Shown here piece by piece: positions 3,142 to 59,902 of a stretch of DNA of 64,000 nucleotides (positions within the stretch are counted from its first letter, which is position 1; every line of letters begins with the position of its first letter). Both the position numbers and the translations under genes were made by a program. Under the pieces are notes generated by a model, which ran no database searches, was not told where the DNA came from, and saw only the letters and a list, made by a program, of their open reading frames with translations. Source of the stretch: Shigella phage JK32; the sequence record MK962753.1; one strand, given 5' to 3'.

Positions 3142-3164
3142 CGTTAAATCCTCATAAAAGAAAA

Positions 3165-3203
3165 GGGAGACTCCCATTATAGAGAATCTCCCTTGTATGT
3201 CAA
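3165..3203 (-). promoter_or_regulatory. early sigma70-like promoter with stem-loop (minus TTGACA 3203-3198, TATAAT 3181-3176; inverted repeat GGGAGA/TCTCCC)
   Basis: -35/-10 hexamers at 16-nt spacing read directly; same architecture recurs upstream of many genes. Confidence 0.5.
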
Positions 3204-3206
3204 GTG

Positions 3207-5030
3207 TTATGATTGCATCCAAATTTTGCGTTGATCTGCATCTTCACTATAGAGCAAATCGAATAGCTCTTTATAGTTTTCCGGTAACGTGATGATCTCC
3301 ATTACAGGATCGTTGATCACGCGATGATAATCTGATTCTGTGAGCGATGCTAAACCTTTGATATATCGAATGTTGTAACCTTTGATATTATCGCGATCGT
3401 TCTCGAAATCTTCTAGGTCATAATACCATCGAACATCATCACCTTTCTTTGGTTCCGCAATGATAATAGGTGTTTTGATAAACCGGATTCGTCCATCTTC
3501 GAACAATTCAGGCCAACGAGCAAAGAAAGAGATCAGACTAGGCTTAATAGACCCGATCCCGTCAGTATCAGCGTCCGTCATAATCGCAATATTTTTGTAT
3601 TGCATAACTTCCAGTGCATCAACACCAAATTGCAAACCAGTGATCGCCATGATGTTAAAAATTTCGGCGTTCTTAACGATCTTTGCCTCTGGTTGTTCCC
3701 ACGTTGTAAGAGTTTTACCTCGCAACGGGAAACCGCCATGTAAATCTTGATCACGTACAGAGATCAGATAGTTGATCGCGGAATCACCTTCCGTCAAGAA
3801 CAGGGTAGTTTCTGCGTCAGTTCCAATAAGGTTAGCTTTAACGTGTTTTGCTACCTTAGCCCGTTTTGCTGCCTTTGCTGCCTTAGTCGCTGCCGCTTTA
3901 TCTGCTGCCTCTTTGCGTGCCAAAACTACAGCAATAATAGGCATGATAATGTTTTCTTTCTTCGCAATGACTTTAGCCAGTTTTTTAAAATCCAGATCAA
4001 TGTGTCGCTTGATATCACCAGTTGGATTAGTCAAGCGTTCTTTTGTCTGTGAATCAAAACGAAGGTTAGGCAATTCACGAACAATAAGAATACAGGTCAA
4101 TCCAGACTTAACCGCAGCTTTAGTAACATCAACCTTATATTCTTTCTTGATTCGTTTTACAATCTCTTCACAAAGATCATCTGTCACGTAGTCTACGTGT
4201 GTTCCCCCGTTTTTGGTAAACAGACCATTAGCAAAGGATACTGATTTAAAACCTTCTCCCTCGACCGCAGGAACTAGGGCAAGTGAAAAGTTTTTATCCT
4301 CGATGACAAACGGATCATCATTGTATAGTTTAGCATAATCCTTGAATTTGCTTGTTATCTTTTTGCCGTTAAATTTAAACGTGATCTTAGGAAAGATTAC
4401 ACTCAATGAATACATTCGGTCGCAAATCACATCTGAAATTTCTTGTGACATGATCATACCTTCAAAATGATCGAAATCGGGGCAGAACGTAACCTTAGTT
4501 CCTTTCAGTTTTGACGGCTTAGATGACCAGCTAATATTTTCTGCACCATTGGTACATTGAACGGTCAGTTCATTCTCTCCGTCACACGTCACACCAGTAA
4601 ACCAGGACGAGAAAAATGATGTGAGCGCGCTTCCGATCCCATTCATACCCATAGTAACACGATTTGTATCATCAAAGTTAGACCCTGCTTTAGCTCGTGT
4701 CCATGCAGCAACTGGTTGTGGAATCTGTTTCCCTTCTGGCGTCGTAACAATATGTTGCGGAATACCGCGACCATTATCTGTTACTGACACAATGTTATCT
4801 TTTATATCCACACTAATAACATTAGCGTACTCAAAATTAGTGCGGATCGCCTCGTCTACCGAGTTGTCGATGATCTCATCAATGATTTTAACCAGTCCAG
4901 GAACGTATGAAACTTTGGTCCATTTTCCAAATAGGAAACGATTGTGTGATTCATAAGTCGTTGACCCGATGTACATTGAAGGTCTCTTAAGACAGTGAGC
5001 GCGATCATCTAACAGCAAAAATTCAGACAT
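3207..5030 (-). CDS. 39: DNA topoisomerase II large subunit, single-gene form (equivalent to T4 gp39 plus gp60)
   Basis: 607-aa ORF; GyrB-like ATPase N-terminus and Toprim-like C-terminal region in one frame; size matches fused 39/60 of T4 relatives. Confidence 0.85.
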   Translation of the reverse strand: MSEFLLLDDRAHCLKRPSMYIGSTTYESHNRFLFGKWTKVSYVPGLVKIIDEIIDNSVDEAIRTNFEYANVISVDIKDNIVSVTDNGRGIPQHIVTTPEGKQIPQPVAAWTRAKAGSNFDDTNRVTMGMNGIGSALTSFFSSWFTGVTCDGENELTVQCTNGAENISWSSKPSKLKGTKVTFCPDFDHFEGMIMSQEISDVICDRMYSLSVIFPKITFKFNGKKITSKFKDYAKLYNDDPFVIEDKNFSLALVPAVEGEGFKSVSFANGLFTKNGGTHVDYVTDDLCEEIVKRIKKEYKVDVTKAAVKSGLTCILIVRELPNLRFDSQTKERLTNPTGDIKRHIDLDFKKLAKVIAKKENIIMPIIAVVLARKEAADKAAATKAAKAAKRAKVAKHVKANLIGTDAETTLFLTEGDSAINYLISVRDQDLHGGFPLRGKTLTTWEQPEAKIVKNAEIFNIMAITGLQFGVDALEVMQYKNIAIMTDADTDGIGSIKPSLISFFARWPELFEDGRIRFIKTPIIIAEPKKGDDVRWYYDLEDFENDRDNIKGYNIRYIKGLASLTESDYHRVINDPVMEIITLPENYKELFDLLYSEDADQRKIWMQS

Positions 5031-6042: not shown

Positions 6043-6711
6043 TTATCCCCTTTGTTTCTTAACTGAATTTGGATCTGGATTTTCTGGCAAGTCTTCCAGA
6101 CCCATAGCATAACGTTGTGCATAGATTAGCATAAGAATATCGCGAGCGCAATCATGAATTGCATCATGTGCGATAAAACCATCTAGCGTACCCATTGGTA
6201 ACGGGCATTCACACATACCACGATGCATCAATGTACGCTCAATGGCGGTACGAACATCTCGGATGTTCCAGAATCGCACAGGTTCAAGGCTGAACGTCTC
6301 TCGTGTATTGTGTGCACGGCGGATCATATCAACTAGTAACGGAATATCAAACGCATTGCCGCGTGACCACATTACGGATTTAACCGGATCTACTCCTACG
6401 GCTTCACAGAATGCGTTAAAACGCGCTAAACCTTCTTTAGTTGATACTTCCGTACCATTTGTGATTAATTGCTTTCTCATGCCTTCTGAGGCGGTATTCT
6501 TCCACCATTCAACCACACCATGATCAAAGATCCTTACACCTTTCTGGGAAGGAATATCAAATTTTACCAGAAAGGAATTGTCAACCAGTTCTTTAAATGT
6601 AGGTGGATTATGTGGATCTTCTTTAAATCCGATTGCCGCCATATTGATTACCGCCCCATCAGGCGGATAACCTAAACTTTCAAAGTCAATCATTAAATCC
6701 ACTGGAAGCAT
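6043..6711 (-). CDS. dexA: exonuclease A (DnaQ-like 3'-5' exonuclease)
   Basis: Resembles T4 DexA; start set at Met (MLPVDLMIDFE) preceded by GGAGG, ORF track gives longer 6043-6783. Confidence 0.7.
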   Translation of the reverse strand: MLPVDLMIDFESLGYPPDGAVINMAAIGFKEDPHNPPTFKELVDNSFLVKFDIPSQKGVRIFDHGVVEWWKNTASEGMRKQLITNGTEVSTKEGLARFNAFCEAVGVDPVKSVMWSRGNAFDIPLLVDMIRRAHNTRETFSLEPVRFWNIRDVRTAIERTLMHRGMCECPLPMGTLDGFIAHDAIHDCARDILMLIYAQRYAMGLEDLPENPDPNSVKKQRG

Positions 6712-6712
6712 T

Positions 6713-6955
6713 TTAAATATCCTCCGCGATATGCCGGAACAACTCCAGATCGTTTTTATCCAGAATGAAACCGCTACAATCAATAATCCCTTTACCGTAA
6801 TTATCGGTTAACAGTCGGTCCGTTGCCATGTATGCGCGTACTTTGTTGTTAAAATTCATTACATGTTGTGCATAGTCACAATGAATCTTTTGACGGTTCC
6901 ACGCGACAATTGATTGTAGATGTATTACATTAGCCATATCATTAATAACAACCAT
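6713..6955 (-). CDS. hypothetical protein (dexA.1 position)
   Basis: 80-aa ORF. Confidence 0.35.
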   Translation of the reverse strand: MVVINDMANVIHLQSIVAWNRQKIHCDYAQHVMNFNNKVRAYMATDRLLTDNYGKGIIDCSGFILDKNDLELFRHIAEDI

Positions 6956-34507: not shown

Positions 34508-35017
34508 TCAAATAATTTTCACTGGAATACTATTAACAATCTTGTATTGTACTTGATTGTCAGACCCCCGCCACGGCTTCTTCGTTGGCATATCTTTAAT
34601 ATAACGCCCATCGATGAACATGTCAACTGATTCTACAATTTTTCTTTGCTCATCATTCAATTGGTCAAGGGTATAACCGGACCATAGCCAAATATCTTTA
34701 TTTGGCATCCATGATTTTACCTCATCGATGATCCGCTGTACACCCTTTAAATTGCGTTTATACAGTGGATCACCACCTAAGAATGTTAGCCCCTGAATAA
34801 AATCAGGTCTAAGCAGATCCAGAATCAATCCCATTGTATCATCGGTGAATGGTTCCCCGTTCTTAGGATTGAGTAGGCTAGCATTAAAGCAACCATCACA
34901 TGCGTGTGAACATCCGGTAACGTAAAGGGAGACTCTCACTCCCTCACCGTTAACCATATCACAATCTTTAATATCGGCATAGCGTAGTTTGCCGTATGTA
35001 TCAGAACTCATATTCAA
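34508..35017 (-). CDS. nrdG: anaerobic ribonucleotide reductase activating protein (radical SAM)
   Basis: 169-aa ORF with CSHACDGC cysteine cluster. Confidence 0.8.
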   Translation of the reverse strand: MNMSSDTYGKLRYADIKDCDMVNGEGVRVSLYVTGCSHACDGCFNASLLNPKNGEPFTDDTMGLILDLLRPDFIQGLTFLGGDPLYKRNLKGVQRIIDEVKSWMPNKDIWLWSGYTLDQLNDEQRKIVESVDMFIDGRYIKDMPTKKPWRGSDNQVQYKIVNSIPVKII

Positions 35018-41019: not shown

Positions 41020-41508
41020 CTATCTTAATCTTTGTATAAATTGTTTCTTATACTTCTTCGTGATCTCTTCTCTTGTATCCGCGTCGCAGTAATCGAAACC
41101 TTCTGCGTCCATAATAGCAACCATCTCCGCGCGTGTCAAGCGTGAAAATCGTTTTACTTTATCAACAGCATATTGAGGATGTAAATGATTGTTGGTGTAG
41201 TCTCCTTTGATGTAATTAACATAGTTTGTAGCCCAAACAACGAAATCAGCACCTAAAGCACCAACACCAAACCGTTTAAAGTCTCCAGTCAACGATCCTT
41301 CTAGGCGGTTGCAACACGAATGAAGCAATCCCCTTACGCGGCCTTGCCCTTTCCCATCTAGATCGTGGTCGTGGTCAAGATGGTTTTTGCTCATATCCTC
41401 AAAAAGTGGCAATTGACAAAGGGGGCAATTGCCCCCCTGTTTTTCGAATAGTTCTTGTTTGTACTCTTTAGCACTCTTAGCAGTCAGTAACATAAATTCA
41501 CCCTCCAA
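41020..41508 (-). CDS. 49: recombination endonuclease VII (Holliday junction resolvase)
   Basis: NHLDHDHDLDGKGQGRVRGLLHSCCN matches T4 gp49 catalytic region; collinear. Confidence 0.85.
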   Translation of the reverse strand: MEGEFMLLTAKSAKEYKQELFEKQGGNCPLCQLPLFEDMSKNHLDHDHDLDGKGQGRVRGLLHSCCNRLEGSLTGDFKRFGVGALGADFVVWATNYVNYIKGDYTNNHLHPQYAVDKVKRFSRLTRAEMVAIMDAEGFDYCDADTREEITKKYKKQFIQRLR

Positions 41509-41517
41509 AGAAGGTAT

Positions 41518-41811
41518 TTAACCATTAATCTTGTTTTTGACTACAAAGGATCGGAACTCATCAAAACCACCGATATAATCACCATTATAGAAAATCTGCG
41601 GCATGGTGGCAATAACTTCTACCCCTGCGCGATCCTGAATGTCGGCAATGATAGAATCAATCTTTACCGGACGACCGTTTTCGTCCACACCATCATTAAC
41701 CGGAATGTAGATGTAAGGGATCTTACGCGCTTCACAAAGGCGCTTTGCATTCTGGCAATACTTACAGTTGTAACCTTCAAAACCAAAAATTTCTACCATG
41801 TTATACCTCAA
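41518..41811 (-). CDS. nrdC: glutaredoxin/thioredoxin (NrdC-like)
   Basis: CKYCQNAKRL redox site and TMPQIFYNGDYIGGFDEF resemble T4 NrdC. Confidence 0.7.
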   Translation of the reverse strand: MRYNMVEIFGFEGYNCKYCQNAKRLCEARKIPYIYIPVNDGVDENGRPVKIDSIIADIQDRAGVEVIATMPQIFYNGDYIGGFDEFRSFVVKNKING

Positions 41812-42620
41812 TCTACGTTAGTTACATAAACTTCTTGTGTATCAGAAGACTTGCCACCTGAACGATCTAGACAATAGGTCTTATTCAACAGGACGCAGTT
41901 TAGATCATTCCGCTTGATAAAGTCAAGAAGATGATCATTTACCTTTCCCTTATGATGTGTGACATTACTGATACCAAACTGAAAACCACGCGCCATAATA
42001 GATTCTACCCACTGATAGAATTTAATCTCTTCCTCGTCACTCCAGAACTTATTATATTCCGCAGAAGTGATAAGGTACGGCGGGTCCAAATAAACGAAAT
42101 CACCTGGCAAGATCTCGATCTCGTCATATCGTCCAGAAGTAAAATTGATTCGACCGTCTTTGTTTTCATACTTAAAATTCAGGACACGCTCTACCGCGTT
42201 TTCGTTAAAAGTCCGGCGACCAAAATTAGCATTAAATTCACCCTTCCGGTTATGTCGGTTAATGTTGCTAAAACTGTGCTGAATCAGAACAAACAGAGAT
42301 AGCGGATCTGGATTCTCGTTATACTTCTTGCGGAATGCCATATAAGAATCTTTATCATCACGAGACAGACCATTCTCGGCAATAATACGCTTGATTGTCG
42401 AAACCGGATCAGGACACTCGTCAATCGCTTTGTAAGCGTCAATTAAGCGGTGATCATAGTCATTAGCCAGCACATCACCTTCAACATACAGAGACACGCT
42501 CAAACCGCCACAAAAGGCATCGACAAAGCGGTTATAGTGCTTAGGGAAATACTTACTGACACCAGGCAATAACTTTTCCTTATTGCCAGTATAGGGAATT
42601 AAACCTAATGCTTTCTTCAT
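41808..42620 (-). CDS. dam: DNA adenine methyltransferase (Dam, N6-A)
   Basis: FVDAFCGGLSV and DFVYLDPPYL motifs; collinear with T4 Dam. Confidence 0.85.
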   Translation of the reverse strand: MKKALGLIPYTGNKEKLLPGVSKYFPKHYNRFVDAFCGGLSVSLYVEGDVLANDYDHRLIDAYKAIDECPDPVSTIKRIIAENGLSRDDKDSYMAFRKKYNENPDPLSLFVLIQHSFSNINRHNRKGEFNANFGRRTFNENAVERVLNFKYENKDGRINFTSGRYDEIEILPGDFVYLDPPYLITSAEYNKFWSDEEEIKFYQWVESIMARGFQFGISNVTHHKGKVNDHLLDFIKRNDLNCVLLNKTYCLDRSGGKSSDTQEVYVTNVD

Positions 42621-56433: not shown

Positions 56434-57132
56434 CTAACCACGGGTATAGTGTTCCAGAACAACTGTCAGATGAATATATTCTAATAGATCTTTCCAAAAG
56501 TCAACATCTGGTTCTTCCGGCATACCGTTTTTCTTTGCCTCTTCACGCGCGAGTTTAACACGTTCGTAGAGATCTTTCAATTCTTCCCGCACATTATCAA
56601 ATGTTCTTTCTCCTAACTTACACGCTAAAATAGAAGAACGTCGCGCGAGCGGGAATTGTAGATCACCAGTTTGATAGATTTCAAGTAGCTGATAACCAAC
56701 ACGCAGAGCATGAGAAAGATCTTTCCAGTTACTGAAATATTTTTCAGATTTGACTACCTGCTTTTTGAGATAACCAGACAAACCCCACATACCAACATGA
56801 TAGAATTTATCGCGATGTGTTCGGATGTATTCCCATTCTCTGGAGGATTCAATCAACATGTTACTAGGCGCGTGCACCATATCAATAGCGCCGATATCAC
56901 CTTTACATGCCAGATTGATAAACCGTTTTAGACTGAACATATTAACATCAATATCGTCTTTGGTGTTCTTGATACCTTGACCGCTAGTGCTTTGGTCATA
57001 GTGTTCTTTCATCGATCCTAAGATAATTTCTTTCGCAGTCGGAACAAAGATACCACGATAATCTTTATCTGAATTTTCAGTATCAAGACCGTATAAGTGA
57101 GATCCGAAGACCATTTTAACCATTGTATGCAT
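56434..57132 (-). CDS. putative nucleotidyltransferase (Pol-beta superfamily-like)
   Basis: N-terminal GSHLYGLDTENSDKDYRGIF fits the G[SG]x9-13Dx[DE] nucleotidyltransferase signature. Confidence 0.45.
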   Translation of the reverse strand: MHTMVKMVFGSHLYGLDTENSDKDYRGIFVPTAKEIILGSMKEHYDQSTSGQGIKNTKDDIDVNMFSLKRFINLACKGDIGAIDMVHAPSNMLIESSREWEYIRTHRDKFYHVGMWGLSGYLKKQVVKSEKYFSNWKDLSHALRVGYQLLEIYQTGDLQFPLARRSSILACKLGERTFDNVREELKDLYERVKLAREEAKKNGMPEEPDVDFWKDLLEYIHLTVVLEHYTRG

Positions 57133-57150: not shown

Positions 57151-57744
57151 TTAAACGTATTCAGCAACAACATTATGTTTAAAATTACCGCTCATTTTTG
57201 GATTTGGATTTTTCAATCGACTATGTATTAAATTTTTGTTGTATCCGGTTGCTTTAGACGCTTCGCCAATACTTTGATAAACAACACCATTAACACGAAT
57301 CGGACGAGACTTATTAAACAGTTTATTCAATCCGGCATCATATGCATGGTTTTGGTTTTCTTGTCTCGTTGCGATCTCAAGATTCCAAACACAATTACAA
57401 GATTTTACCCCACTTTTATGATTAATTTCAAGCCCTTCACAATCACCTATAAAGTGTTCAGCGACTAGTCTATGAATATAGCGATATTTCTTAGTTTCCC
57501 CGTCATGCAAGCATACATTATAATAACCATCACCAGCGCGTTTAGGTCGGAGTAGTTTACCTTTAACACGTTTTATAGTAGGGAACTCACCAAATTGATT
57601 TCGCTGGACAAACGAAATCTCGCGGTCTAATGAACGGATTCGACCATAGTTAGACACTTGATAAAAACTTTCATAGCCTTTAATTGGCTTCCATATCTCA
57701 GGGATTTCTACACCATCAATAACAACAAGTTTAAATTCTTCCAT
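57151..57744 (-). CDS. free-standing HNH endonuclease (NUMOD4-like N-terminus)
   Basis: YQVSNYGRIRS segment plus HRLVAEHF...INHKSG...N HNH core. Confidence 0.6.
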   Translation of the reverse strand: MEEFKLVVIDGVEIPEIWKPIKGYESFYQVSNYGRIRSLDREISFVQRNQFGEFPTIKRVKGKLLRPKRAGDGYYNVCLHDGETKKYRYIHRLVAEHFIGDCEGLEINHKSGVKSCNCVWNLEIATRQENQNHAYDAGLNKLFNKSRPIRVNGVVYQSIGEASKATGYNKNLIHSRLKNPNPKMSGNFKHNVVAEYV

Positions 57745-57753
57745 ATTTCACCT

Positions 57754-57789
57754 CATAAAAAAATAAAGCCAACCCTTTCGGATTGGCTT
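57754..57789 (-). terminator. rho-independent terminator (stem AAGCCAA/TTGGCTT plus T-run)
   Basis: Hairpin and T-run on minus strand after GrcA-like gene. Confidence 0.45.
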
Positions 57790-57794
57790 GTCGA

Positions 57795-58208
57795 TTACAT
57801 AGATTCCGTAAAGGTACGGGTGATGATATCAAGTTGTTGTTCGCGTGTCAAGGCGTTGAATCGGGTAGCATAACCACTGATTCTAATAGTCAGTTGTGGG
57901 TATTTTTCAGGATTTTCTAACGCATCAAGAAGAGTTTCCCGACGCAGCACGTTCGCGTTGAGATGATGACCAGCGTTACTATTTACCCCGTTATCAATTG
58001 CTACAGGACGGAAGCTAGTTGTGTGTAGTGCCAGCGAATCGACGTCTTCTGCGGTGATCACATGGTCTTCTGCGAAAGTTTTACTAACAATTACTTTAGC
58101 GCCGATCAGTGCTTTCGGTTCGGATACCAGAATCATAGGCGCGAAATGTCCACCGATAATAGTACCTTTATGCTCACCTTTCATGATTTGAATTGCTTTA
58201 AATTCCAT
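57795..58208 (-). CDS. autonomous glycyl radical cofactor-like protein (GrcA/YfiD-like)
   Basis: C-terminal [12 protein letters not shown]...[33 protein letters not shown] closely resembles E. coli GrcA and the glycyl-radical RVSGY motif. Confidence 0.65.
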
Positions 58209-58343
58209 AATTCACCTCTTATAGATCAGGACGTTCGTCATTAACTTTTCCAACCAAAACCCCATAGAGTTTATCAGGTTGGACTTTACGATTCTTATTG
58301 ATTGTAGCACGGAATCGACGAGCTACGCTATCTTTATTTTTCA

Positions 58344-58835
58344 TTAGTTGATACCTAAGCCAATGAAAATAGGTTGGTCTTCTACATTACCCATTCCAAC
58401 ACTACGTCGATTTAACTCTAAAAACTGCAATACGCTGTCAGTAAATCCGCGCATGGTAGTATCTAGGATAAAGATTGTTTTGTCAAGCCGACGACCTCGC
58501 CATGTAATCGGATTCAGGAAAGTTCGGATCGACGTACAATCTACATTTGAAATATTGACATTTTCACCACGACCGCGATCTCGGATCGTTTTGACATGTT
58601 CCCGCGTTGTCGAAACGATAAAGACACTATAGCCTTTTCGCGTATAATGGTCATATAACTTGATTGTAGCGTCTGTATGCCCTGTTTGACGCCCTAAATT
58701 GATTGAGACGATGGAATCTAGGTCATCAGCAAAATTGCGTCGCTTACGGCGTTCTATGATGCCATCTACGGCAGAAACACATGCAGCATAAATCAAATCT
58801 TTACTTTCTAATTTTACATCAATATTCATTGTCAA
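58344..58835 (-). CDS. hypothetical protein
   Basis: 163-aa ORF. Confidence 0.4.
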   Translation of the reverse strand: MTMNIDVKLESKDLIYAACVSAVDGIIERRKRRNFADDLDSIVSINLGRQTGHTDATIKLYDHYTRKGYSVFIVSTTREHVKTIRDRGRGENVNISNVDCTSIRTFLNPITWRGRRLDKTIFILDTTMRGFTDSVLQFLELNRRSVGMGNVEDQPIFIGLGIN

Positions 58836-58891: not shown

Positions 58892-59467
58892 TTATTTTGG
58901 ATCTGGGAAATTCAATAGAGCATATTCTCCATAAAATTTCCTAGCTGCATTATCATAAGCGATTGCAGCTTCGATTTCTGTGTCATATTGTCCAAGAACA
59001 TGTCTTTGTAGGTTGACCATTATACTAGCTCTCCATTTCTTACGCAAATCCTTCCTGTTACACTTACTAACACCCTTATACACACTAGAAAACTTTTTAG
59101 ACTTCTTCTTTCTATTATGTTGATTTTGCGCGTCGGTTGCCTCCCTAAGATTTGGAGGATTGTTATTAGCAGGATTACCGTCAATATGATCAATTAATCT
59201 AACTTGCGTCCCATGTTCTAGAAACCAAACAACCCTATGCACGAATAGATGAACTCTAGGAAGACCGTCATCTCTACTATGCCAAAATCTAAGATGACCA
59301 TCTTTATTTGTTCTGACTTTAACTAAATCGCCGTGTTTATATCTACTCCCTAATGGTCGTCCTTTGATAGCTTTACTATCGACTCTATAATATAAGATAC
59401 CCTCTATATGAGCATATCTAAGTTTTATCTCGTTTTGTAGGGATTCATCCCAATATTTAAAGGTCAT
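58892..59467 (-). CDS. free-standing HNH endonuclease with AP2-type domain (paralog of 28242-28796)
   Basis: HRVVWFLEHGTQ...IDHIDGNPANN and YKGVS...WRASI segments. Confidence 0.65.
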   Translation of the reverse strand: MTFKYWDESLQNEIKLRYAHIEGILYYRVDSKAIKGRPLGSRYKHGDLVKVRTNKDGHLRFWHSRDDGLPRVHLFVHRVVWFLEHGTQVRLIDHIDGNPANNNPPNLREATDAQNQHNRKKKSKKFSSVYKGVSKCNRKDLRKKWRASIMVNLQRHVLGQYDTEIEAAIAYDNAARKFYGEYALLNFPDPK

Positions 59468-59512
59468 TTTATAATCCTCACAAAGCCAGCGATTAAGCTG
59501 GCTTTATTTTAG

Positions 59513-59902
59513 TTATACCGGGTCTGGATATACCTTTTTATCGAGTTCCATATGCGGTCCGTCTTTAAAAGTAACCCAATCAACACCGCAGATAACAGGA
59601 ACACCCAATTCTCGACCAGCTTGTTTAAATGCATCAGCGATCATGCGGTAATATTTCATGTTCCATGTATCCTTATCTTTAGGATACGCTACAACGTCAA
59701 CCGCGAAACCGTGAAGATGACGAGATTTCATAGTCTTAGATTTACCTTCCGCAACATATTTCTTTTGCGTTTCTAGACTACGCACACCTTCCGTAATACC
59801 AAAATCGACCGGAGTCAGTTCTAATGCACGATGAACGACTTTTACTAGGTCTGGATGTACACCAACAAGCCGATCTTTGCTTCTTTGAGATAATTTAAAC
59901 AT
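59513..59902 (-). CDS. endolysin, peptidase M15-type (L-alanyl-D-glutamate peptidase-like)
   Basis: SRHLHGFAVDV and DGPHMEL zinc-binding motifs; 129 aa. Confidence 0.7.
   Translation of the reverse strand: MFKLSQRSKDRLVGVHPDLVKVVHRALELTPVDFGITEGVRSLETQKKYVAEGKSKTMKSRHLHGFAVDVVAYPKDKDTWNMKYYRMIADAFKQAGRELGVPVICGVDWVTFKDGPHMELDKKVYPDPV

Follow-up and report, generated by a model that had tools for sequence, protein, structure and literature searches.

Glycyl-radical enzymes, NrdD among them, are all cleaved by oxygen at the radical glycine. Two proteins of approximately 14 kDa, YfiD of E. coli and Y06I of phage T4, have been described as spare parts. Work by Knappe's group showed that the PFL-activating enzyme puts a glycyl radical on both, and that the radical-bearing protein forms a complex with oxygen-cleaved PFL and restores its function in vitro (Wagner et al. 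2001, BBRC 285:456, as recounted in Andorfer et al. 2021, PMC8683613). As of 2021, no spare-part proteins besides YfiD and Y06I had been validated (Andorfer et al. 2021, PMC8683613). The vs.6 gene had been listed earlier as a Gly_radical ORF, conserved in six of six T4-like genomes including that of RB49 (Nolan et al. 2006, PMC1524935). In the T4 reference the gene order is vs.8-vs.7-vs.6-vs.5...regB, vs.6 encodes 120 aa, and its RefSeq label is "autonomous glycyl radical cofactor GrcA". We take Y06I to be the Swiss-Prot name of the T4 vs.6 protein, since there is one GrcA-like place per T4-type record and T4 vs.6 is placed between regB and denV. Given the work on Y06I (PMC8683613) and the listing by Nolan et al. 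(2006), neither the gene nor its family or biochemical mechanism is thus new.

The window analyzed here is a stretch of 64,000 nucleotides from Shigella phage JK32 (MK962753.1). The region around vs.6 shows 93–97% DNA identity to Krischvirus genomes (RB49, JSE, pEJ01, MIZ4, FL04 and others), and the window belongs to a Krischvirus, an RB49/JSE-like T4-type coliphage (Straboviridae). A sequence-only reading of this DNA had proposed a stand-alone GrcA/YfiD-like cofactor gene, and both the boundaries that it gave for the ORF (57795..58208) and the assignment are borne out. The ORF lies on the minus strand and encodes 137 aa. The protein matches Pfam Gly_radical (PF01228) with E=6e-15 (56 bits against a cut-off of 22 bits), and its top solved-structure match is E. 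coli GrcA (6owr; E=1.6e-27, residues 37–137). The features of the locus are collected in Table 1. The gene stands alone: it has its own ribosome-binding site, stop codon and terminator, its neighbors are unrelated, and no catalytic barrel of a glycyl-radical enzyme is fused to it. The terminator hairpin has a GC-containing stem and is followed by a T-run; RB49, kvi and JSE carry this hairpin as well. A single-sequence AlphaFold2 model of the protein (mean pLDDT 43.7, pTM 0.35) was too low in confidence to be used.

Table 1. Coordinates of features in the 64,000-nucleotide window from phage JK32.
Feature	Coordinates	Strand	Evidence or remark
nrdG, sole radical-SAM activase of the window	34508..35017	minus	Pfam Fer4_12, 2.4e-43
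nrdD, class III ribonucleotide reductase, 620 aa	36413..38275	minus	Pfam NRDD, 8e-176; C-terminal RVSGYLG
Endonuclease ORF, 197 aa, NUMOD4 + HNH_3, own RBS	57151..57744	minus	Pfam NUMOD4 1.8e-18, HNH_3 2.5e-10
Homing-endonuclease cassette, 598 bp, between the vs.6 terminator and nrdC.11	57155..57752	minus	absent from RB49, kvi, KMB43 and ECD7
Intrinsic-terminator-like hairpin (10-bp stem, GAAA loop), then TATTTTTTTA	57789..57766	minus	directly after the vs.6 TAA stop
vs.6 / phage grcA CDS (137 aa + stop)	57795..58208	minus	ORF listing, Pfam, 6owr, PHROG 1209, position
Divergent 3' allele of vs.6 (radical domain)	57795..58005	minus	~62% nt identity to Krischvirus genomes free of the homing endonuclease
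Glycyl-radical domain, residues 78-137 (= PflB 702-760)	57798..57977	minus	76% identity to PflB; Pfam match residues 78-118
GGT codon of Gly112, predicted radical site	57873..57875	minus	aligns with GrcA G102 and PflB G734; motif RISGYAT
5' part of vs.6 (~codons 1-68, GrcA-like N-terminal region)	58006..58208	minus	97-100% nt identity in the Krischvirus genomes compared
vs.6 ribosome-binding site AAGAGGTGA	58220..58212	minus	strong Shine-Dalgarno sequence, ends 4 nt before the ATG; direct sequence reading

The closest described relative is T4 vs.6 (Y06I). Both genes lie in the same block and orientation, with vs.8 upstream and regB, vs and tk.4 downstream. The full-length proteins are approximately 51% identical, combine a GrcA-like N-terminal region with a Gly-radical domain of about 60 residues, and belong to the same PHROG. 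PHROG 1209 is matched over its full length (E=1.2e-46; residues 3–137 against profile positions 1–121 of 121). The collinear gene of JSE bears the name vs.6; vs.8 lies upstream of it, and nrdC.11, regB, vs.1, vs and tk.4 lie downstream. In phage kvi the counterpart is labeled "autonomous glycyl radical cofactor". The JK32 and T4 proteins also differ. The JK32 protein is longer than the 120-aa T4 protein and has some 14 extra residues inserted around positions 18–31. The radical domains are identical at 43 of the last 60 residues, with RISGYAT here and RVSGYAV in T4. Between vs.8 and vs.6, T4 has the 110-aa vs.7, whereas the window has a 41-aa ORF (58219..58344, minus). This small ORF is conserved (PHROG 13848, 3e-30) and has no Pfam domain. 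The vs.8 gene (58344..58835, minus) belongs to PHROG 1488, of unknown function, and likewise has no Pfam domain. On the other side, nrdC.11 (56434..57132, minus) matches Pfam RlaP with E=5.6e-14, a family of nucleotidyltransferases of the DNA polymerase beta type that belongs to an RNA-repair pathway; in relatives it is annotated merely as a nucleotidyltransferase. A tblastn search found vs.6 homologues in 1580 phage records, many of them already carrying the label "autonomous glycyl radical cofactor". Most are from T4-like phages with Escherichia, Salmonella, Klebsiella, Shigella, Yersinia or Aeromonas as host; T5-like phages carry a shorter homologue.

The similarity of the protein is to GrcA and to the C-terminus of PflB, which is the second-best solved-structure match (E=7e-25). 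By BLASTP it is 76% identical to PflB over the final 59 residues (702–760; E=3e-31). Over its last 60 residues it shares 44 identities with E. coli GrcA and 45 with PflB. The near match to GrcA that had been proposed for this segment therefore stands as homology but not as near-identity, the figure being about 73–75% for GrcA and PflB. The radical glycine context is retained: R109, S111, G112 and Y113 are invariant in an alignment of the vs.6 protein with GrcA, PflB, T4 vs.6, JSE vs.6 and even NrdD. The fingerprint reads RISGYAT against the canonical RVSGYAV, the V→I and V→T changes both being conservative. The counterparts of G112 are G102 in GrcA and G734 in PflB (PMC12338860). The C-terminal domain mixes PflB-like and GrcA-like (NVLRRETL) stretches.

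Like E. coli GrcA (YfiD; 6owr, IPR011140 / TIGR04365), the protein is a stand-alone product of about 14–15 kDa with a conserved radical glycine. It differs from GrcA in being phage-encoded, in its diverged first ~36 residues, and in having no cysteine in its 137 aa, where E. coli GrcA has one. Without a cysteine it has no site for a thiyl radical, which leaves only a cofactor role. The likeness to the PflB C-terminal domain (residues ~700–759; 1h16, 2pfl) includes the G734 loop, and this domain is thought to be the piece that the spare part replaces. PflB itself has a ten-stranded catalytic barrel and Cys418/Cys419. The vs.6 protein has neither and thus cannot act alone as an enzyme.

The protein scores 113.7 bits against the NCBIfam GrcA equivalog TIGR04365, under the cut-off of 170 bits. 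We rejected this as an argument against GrcA membership. In the controls, E. coli GrcA passes with 234 bits, but RB49 vs.6 (133.8 bits) and the biochemically validated T4 Y06I (151.1 bits) both fail. Because Y06I also lies below it, the cut-off separates bacterial from phage GrcA, not functional from non-functional proteins.

A recent capture of this allele from an E. coli host was also considered and rejected. The best E. coli DNA match to vs.6 is pflB, with only 69% identity and over the 3' 178 nt only. The T4 gene (6558..6920, minus, of T4 segment L003) is different in this respect. Its last 60 residues are identical to E. coli GrcA at 59 positions (R→H at the other), whereas the radical domain here is only 73–75% identical to GrcA and PflB. 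The N-terminal half of T4 vs.6 is strongly diverged from E. coli GrcA, and Krischvirus radical domains are not host-like. This pattern suggests that the T4 radical domain may have been exchanged with host grcA relatively recently.

We consider it highly probable that the vs.6 ORF is the Krischvirus orthologue of T4 vs.6 (Y06I), and that it encodes a GrcA/YfiD-type autonomous cofactor for oxygen-cleaved host PflB. By analogy, this allele would behave like Y06I, being activated by PflA and rescuing PflB. The sequence-only reading had proposed rescue of host PflB, which agrees, to the extent that the T4 orthologue is a guide, with the literature on Y06I as described in PMC8683613. The gene would be transcribed within the leftward block, as early/middle in T4. 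Host PflA, a radical SAM enzyme, would then abstract hydrogen from Gly112, which lies in the RISGYAT loop. The activated 15-kDa protein would dock on G734-cleaved host PflB in place of the lost C-terminal radical domain, and the radical would be handed to Cys419 of PflB, so that the reaction turning pyruvate into acetyl-CoA plus formate is restored. Phage-encoded PflA was not found: T4-type phages match PflA through NrdG alone, over ~30% of PflA at ~34% identity. As there is no PflA homologue besides NrdG in these phages, host PflA is the expected activase. After shut-off of host gene expression, the host could resynthesize neither PflB nor its own GrcA. The benefit to the phage, we infer, would be a sustained fermentative carbon and energy flux of the host in the micro-oxic gut after this shut-off. 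In the papers searched on vs.6/Y06I, we found no evidence of an in-vivo role of vs.6 in phage infection and no infection phenotype.

The gene is under purifying selection. Compared with RB49, dN/dS is ~0.17 over the whole gene; in the C-terminal half dS is saturated and dN is 0.28.

The beneficiary might instead be the phage's own NrdD, a possibility that had also been raised from the sequence. Here the vs.6 protein would be activated by NrdG and would replace the oxygen-cleaved C-terminus of NrdD. Both NrdD and NrdG are encoded in the window, and NrdD is one of the enzymes that oxygen cuts at the radical glycine. NrdD is intact with its own glycyl-radical C-terminus, as that reading had described it, the Pfam NRDD match being full length. 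Among ORFs of at least 90 aa, the window holds one CxxxCxxC radical-SAM motif, in NrdG. Spare parts for other glycyl-radical enzymes have been speculated on (PMC8683613), and the 2006 annotation paper took the shared Pfam domain as ground for guessing that vs.6 acts in nucleotide metabolism (PMC1524935). The sequences, however, do not support rescue of NrdD. BLASTP of the vs.6 protein against NrdD of the window gives only the pentapeptide R[IV]SGY with E=2.2, which is not significant, and there is no domain-level similarity. A forced alignment reaches 23% identity, against 76% to PflB. NrdD carries a Cys4 zinc ribbon (CHVCG...CPDCG) just ahead of the glycine, for which the cysteine-free vs.6 protein has no equivalent. 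The distance between the two genes had been put at about 20 kb. It is 19.5 kb, so there is no gene-order link; the spacing follows from T4-type gene order, vs.6 lying in the regB-vs-denV/e block as in T4. Because the similarity lies with PflB and not with NrdD, the presence of nrdD in the same window is incidental. We rejected this reading on sequence grounds and regard it as extremely unlikely. The surroundings of nrdD are ordinary T4-type content, with a T4 endonuclease VII homologue (41020..41508, minus) and a D12-class N6-adenine DNA methyltransferase (Dam-like; 41808..42620, minus) within a few kilobases.

Two further readings were weighed. The protein might serve a host PFL-type enzyme other than PflB, such as TdcE (2-ketobutyrate formate-lyase), or might act as a decoy that titrates host PflA or occupies PflB and so redirects host metabolism. 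The mixture of PflB-like and GrcA-like stretches in the C-terminal domain points in this direction, and the altered fingerprint RISGYAT could shift partner or activase preference. The T4 orthologue, however, restores PFL activity and does not inhibit it, according to PMC8683613. The residues of the radical site are also kept by strong purifying selection, and a pure decoy would not need them. Nothing in the data points to TdcE specifically, and we consider these variants quite improbable. It is very unlikely, too, that vs.6 is functionless for the phage and persists by hitch-hiking as a landing pad or target for homing endonucleases. Across Krischvirus genomes the site just downstream does hold two different homing endonucleases, and with one of them the vs.6 3' half has been swapped. 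Against this, every genome examined keeps the reading frame intact, dN/dS stays far under 1 with the saturated 3' half included, ~1580 phage records of T4-like and T5-like lineages have homologues, and the T4 protein is biochemically active according to PMC8683613. Rescue of host PflB by a vs.6-encoded cofactor is our preferred explanation.

The 3' half of the gene has a separate history. A NUMOD4-HNH insertion lies 45 bp downstream of vs.6, and the cassette is absent from RB49, kvi, KMB43 and ECD7. Over the first ~205 nt of vs.6, dN is 0 and dS is 0.07–0.11 against RB49, JSE and kvi (0.07 against RB49). The final ~210 nt are only ~62% identical to RB49, kvi, KMB43, ECD7 and JSE, and dS is saturated. 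On the other flank of the cassette, nrdC.11 is 96–97% identical up to the junction. The endonuclease is found at ≥95% aa identity in exactly eight phage records (MIZ4, MIZ5, pEJ01, FL20, LF73P4, AV108, FL04 and G37-3). The divergent 3' allele of vs.6 is found by megablast at ≥90% nt identity in exactly the same eight; beyond them, the next-best DNA matches reach ~72–73%. FL04 and G37-3 carry only the distal part of the divergent allele, which is the expected outcome of variable co-conversion tracts. In JSE the 3' end of vs.6 is of yet another, third kind, and the same vs.6-nrdC.11 site holds a different ORF of 176 aa with weak NUMOD4/HNH_3 matches (3147..3677, minus, of JSE segment L001). The vs.6-nrdC.11 intergenic site has the look of an insertion hot spot for endonucleases.

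The free-standing seg/mob endonucleases of T4-type phages (SegG and MobE, for example) bring about co-conversion of the genes beside them. The JK32 cassette resembles them in being an intergenic NUMOD4-HNH ORF with its own ribosome-binding site that occurs sporadically among close relatives. It also shows perfect linkage to a divergent allele of the conserved neighboring gene, and on one flank only. The linkage of endonuclease and divergent 3' allele in eight of eight records fits homing with one-sided co-conversion, and it points to the conserved stretch that codes for the radical domain as a possible homing target. It is possible, and we put it forward tentatively, that the NUMOD4-HNH endonuclease cleaves the radical-domain sequence, and that the RISGYAT allele is immune to cleavage and was co-converted from an unsampled donor phage. 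The donor is taken to be unsampled because no relative outside the eight endonuclease-bearing genomes exceeds ~73% nt identity. The swapped radical domain may possibly change activase or partner preference. The association of a homing endonuclease with vs.6 did not come up in the paper searches, which were centered on vs.6/Y06I. The endonuclease-linked vs.6 allele follows a known pattern.

The endonuclease-linked 3' allele also contains a putative, near-consensus sigma-70-like promoter (57851..57823, minus), with TTGACA, a 17-nt spacer, TATCAT and an extended -10 TG (11/12 matches). It lies ~80 nt upstream of the endonuclease start, and in the RB49 allele the -35 element reads CTGACT. Transcription from it might reach the endonuclease across the terminator hairpin. 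The total number of promoter-like matches in the region is not above chance. A second free-standing homing endonuclease (HNH_3 + AP2; 58892..59467, minus; cassette ~58908..59555) lies between vs.8 and the endolysin gene. This cassette is present in JSE, RB49, KMB43, pEJ01 and FL04 and absent from kvi, MIZ4 and ECD7; the pEJ01 annotation splits its ORF in two.

The gene itself carries little weight as a discovery: the biochemistry of phage GrcA dates from 2001 (T4 Y06I), and the family is routinely annotated. The gene has been kept in both T4-like and T5-like enterobacterial phages. The endonuclease-linked allele swap offers a natural experiment on the way in which selfish elements reshuffle an auxiliary metabolic gene under functional constraint. 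If the tentative homing scheme is true, the diversity of phage GrcA radical domains would be driven by the homing of selfish elements and not by adaptation to host enzymes.
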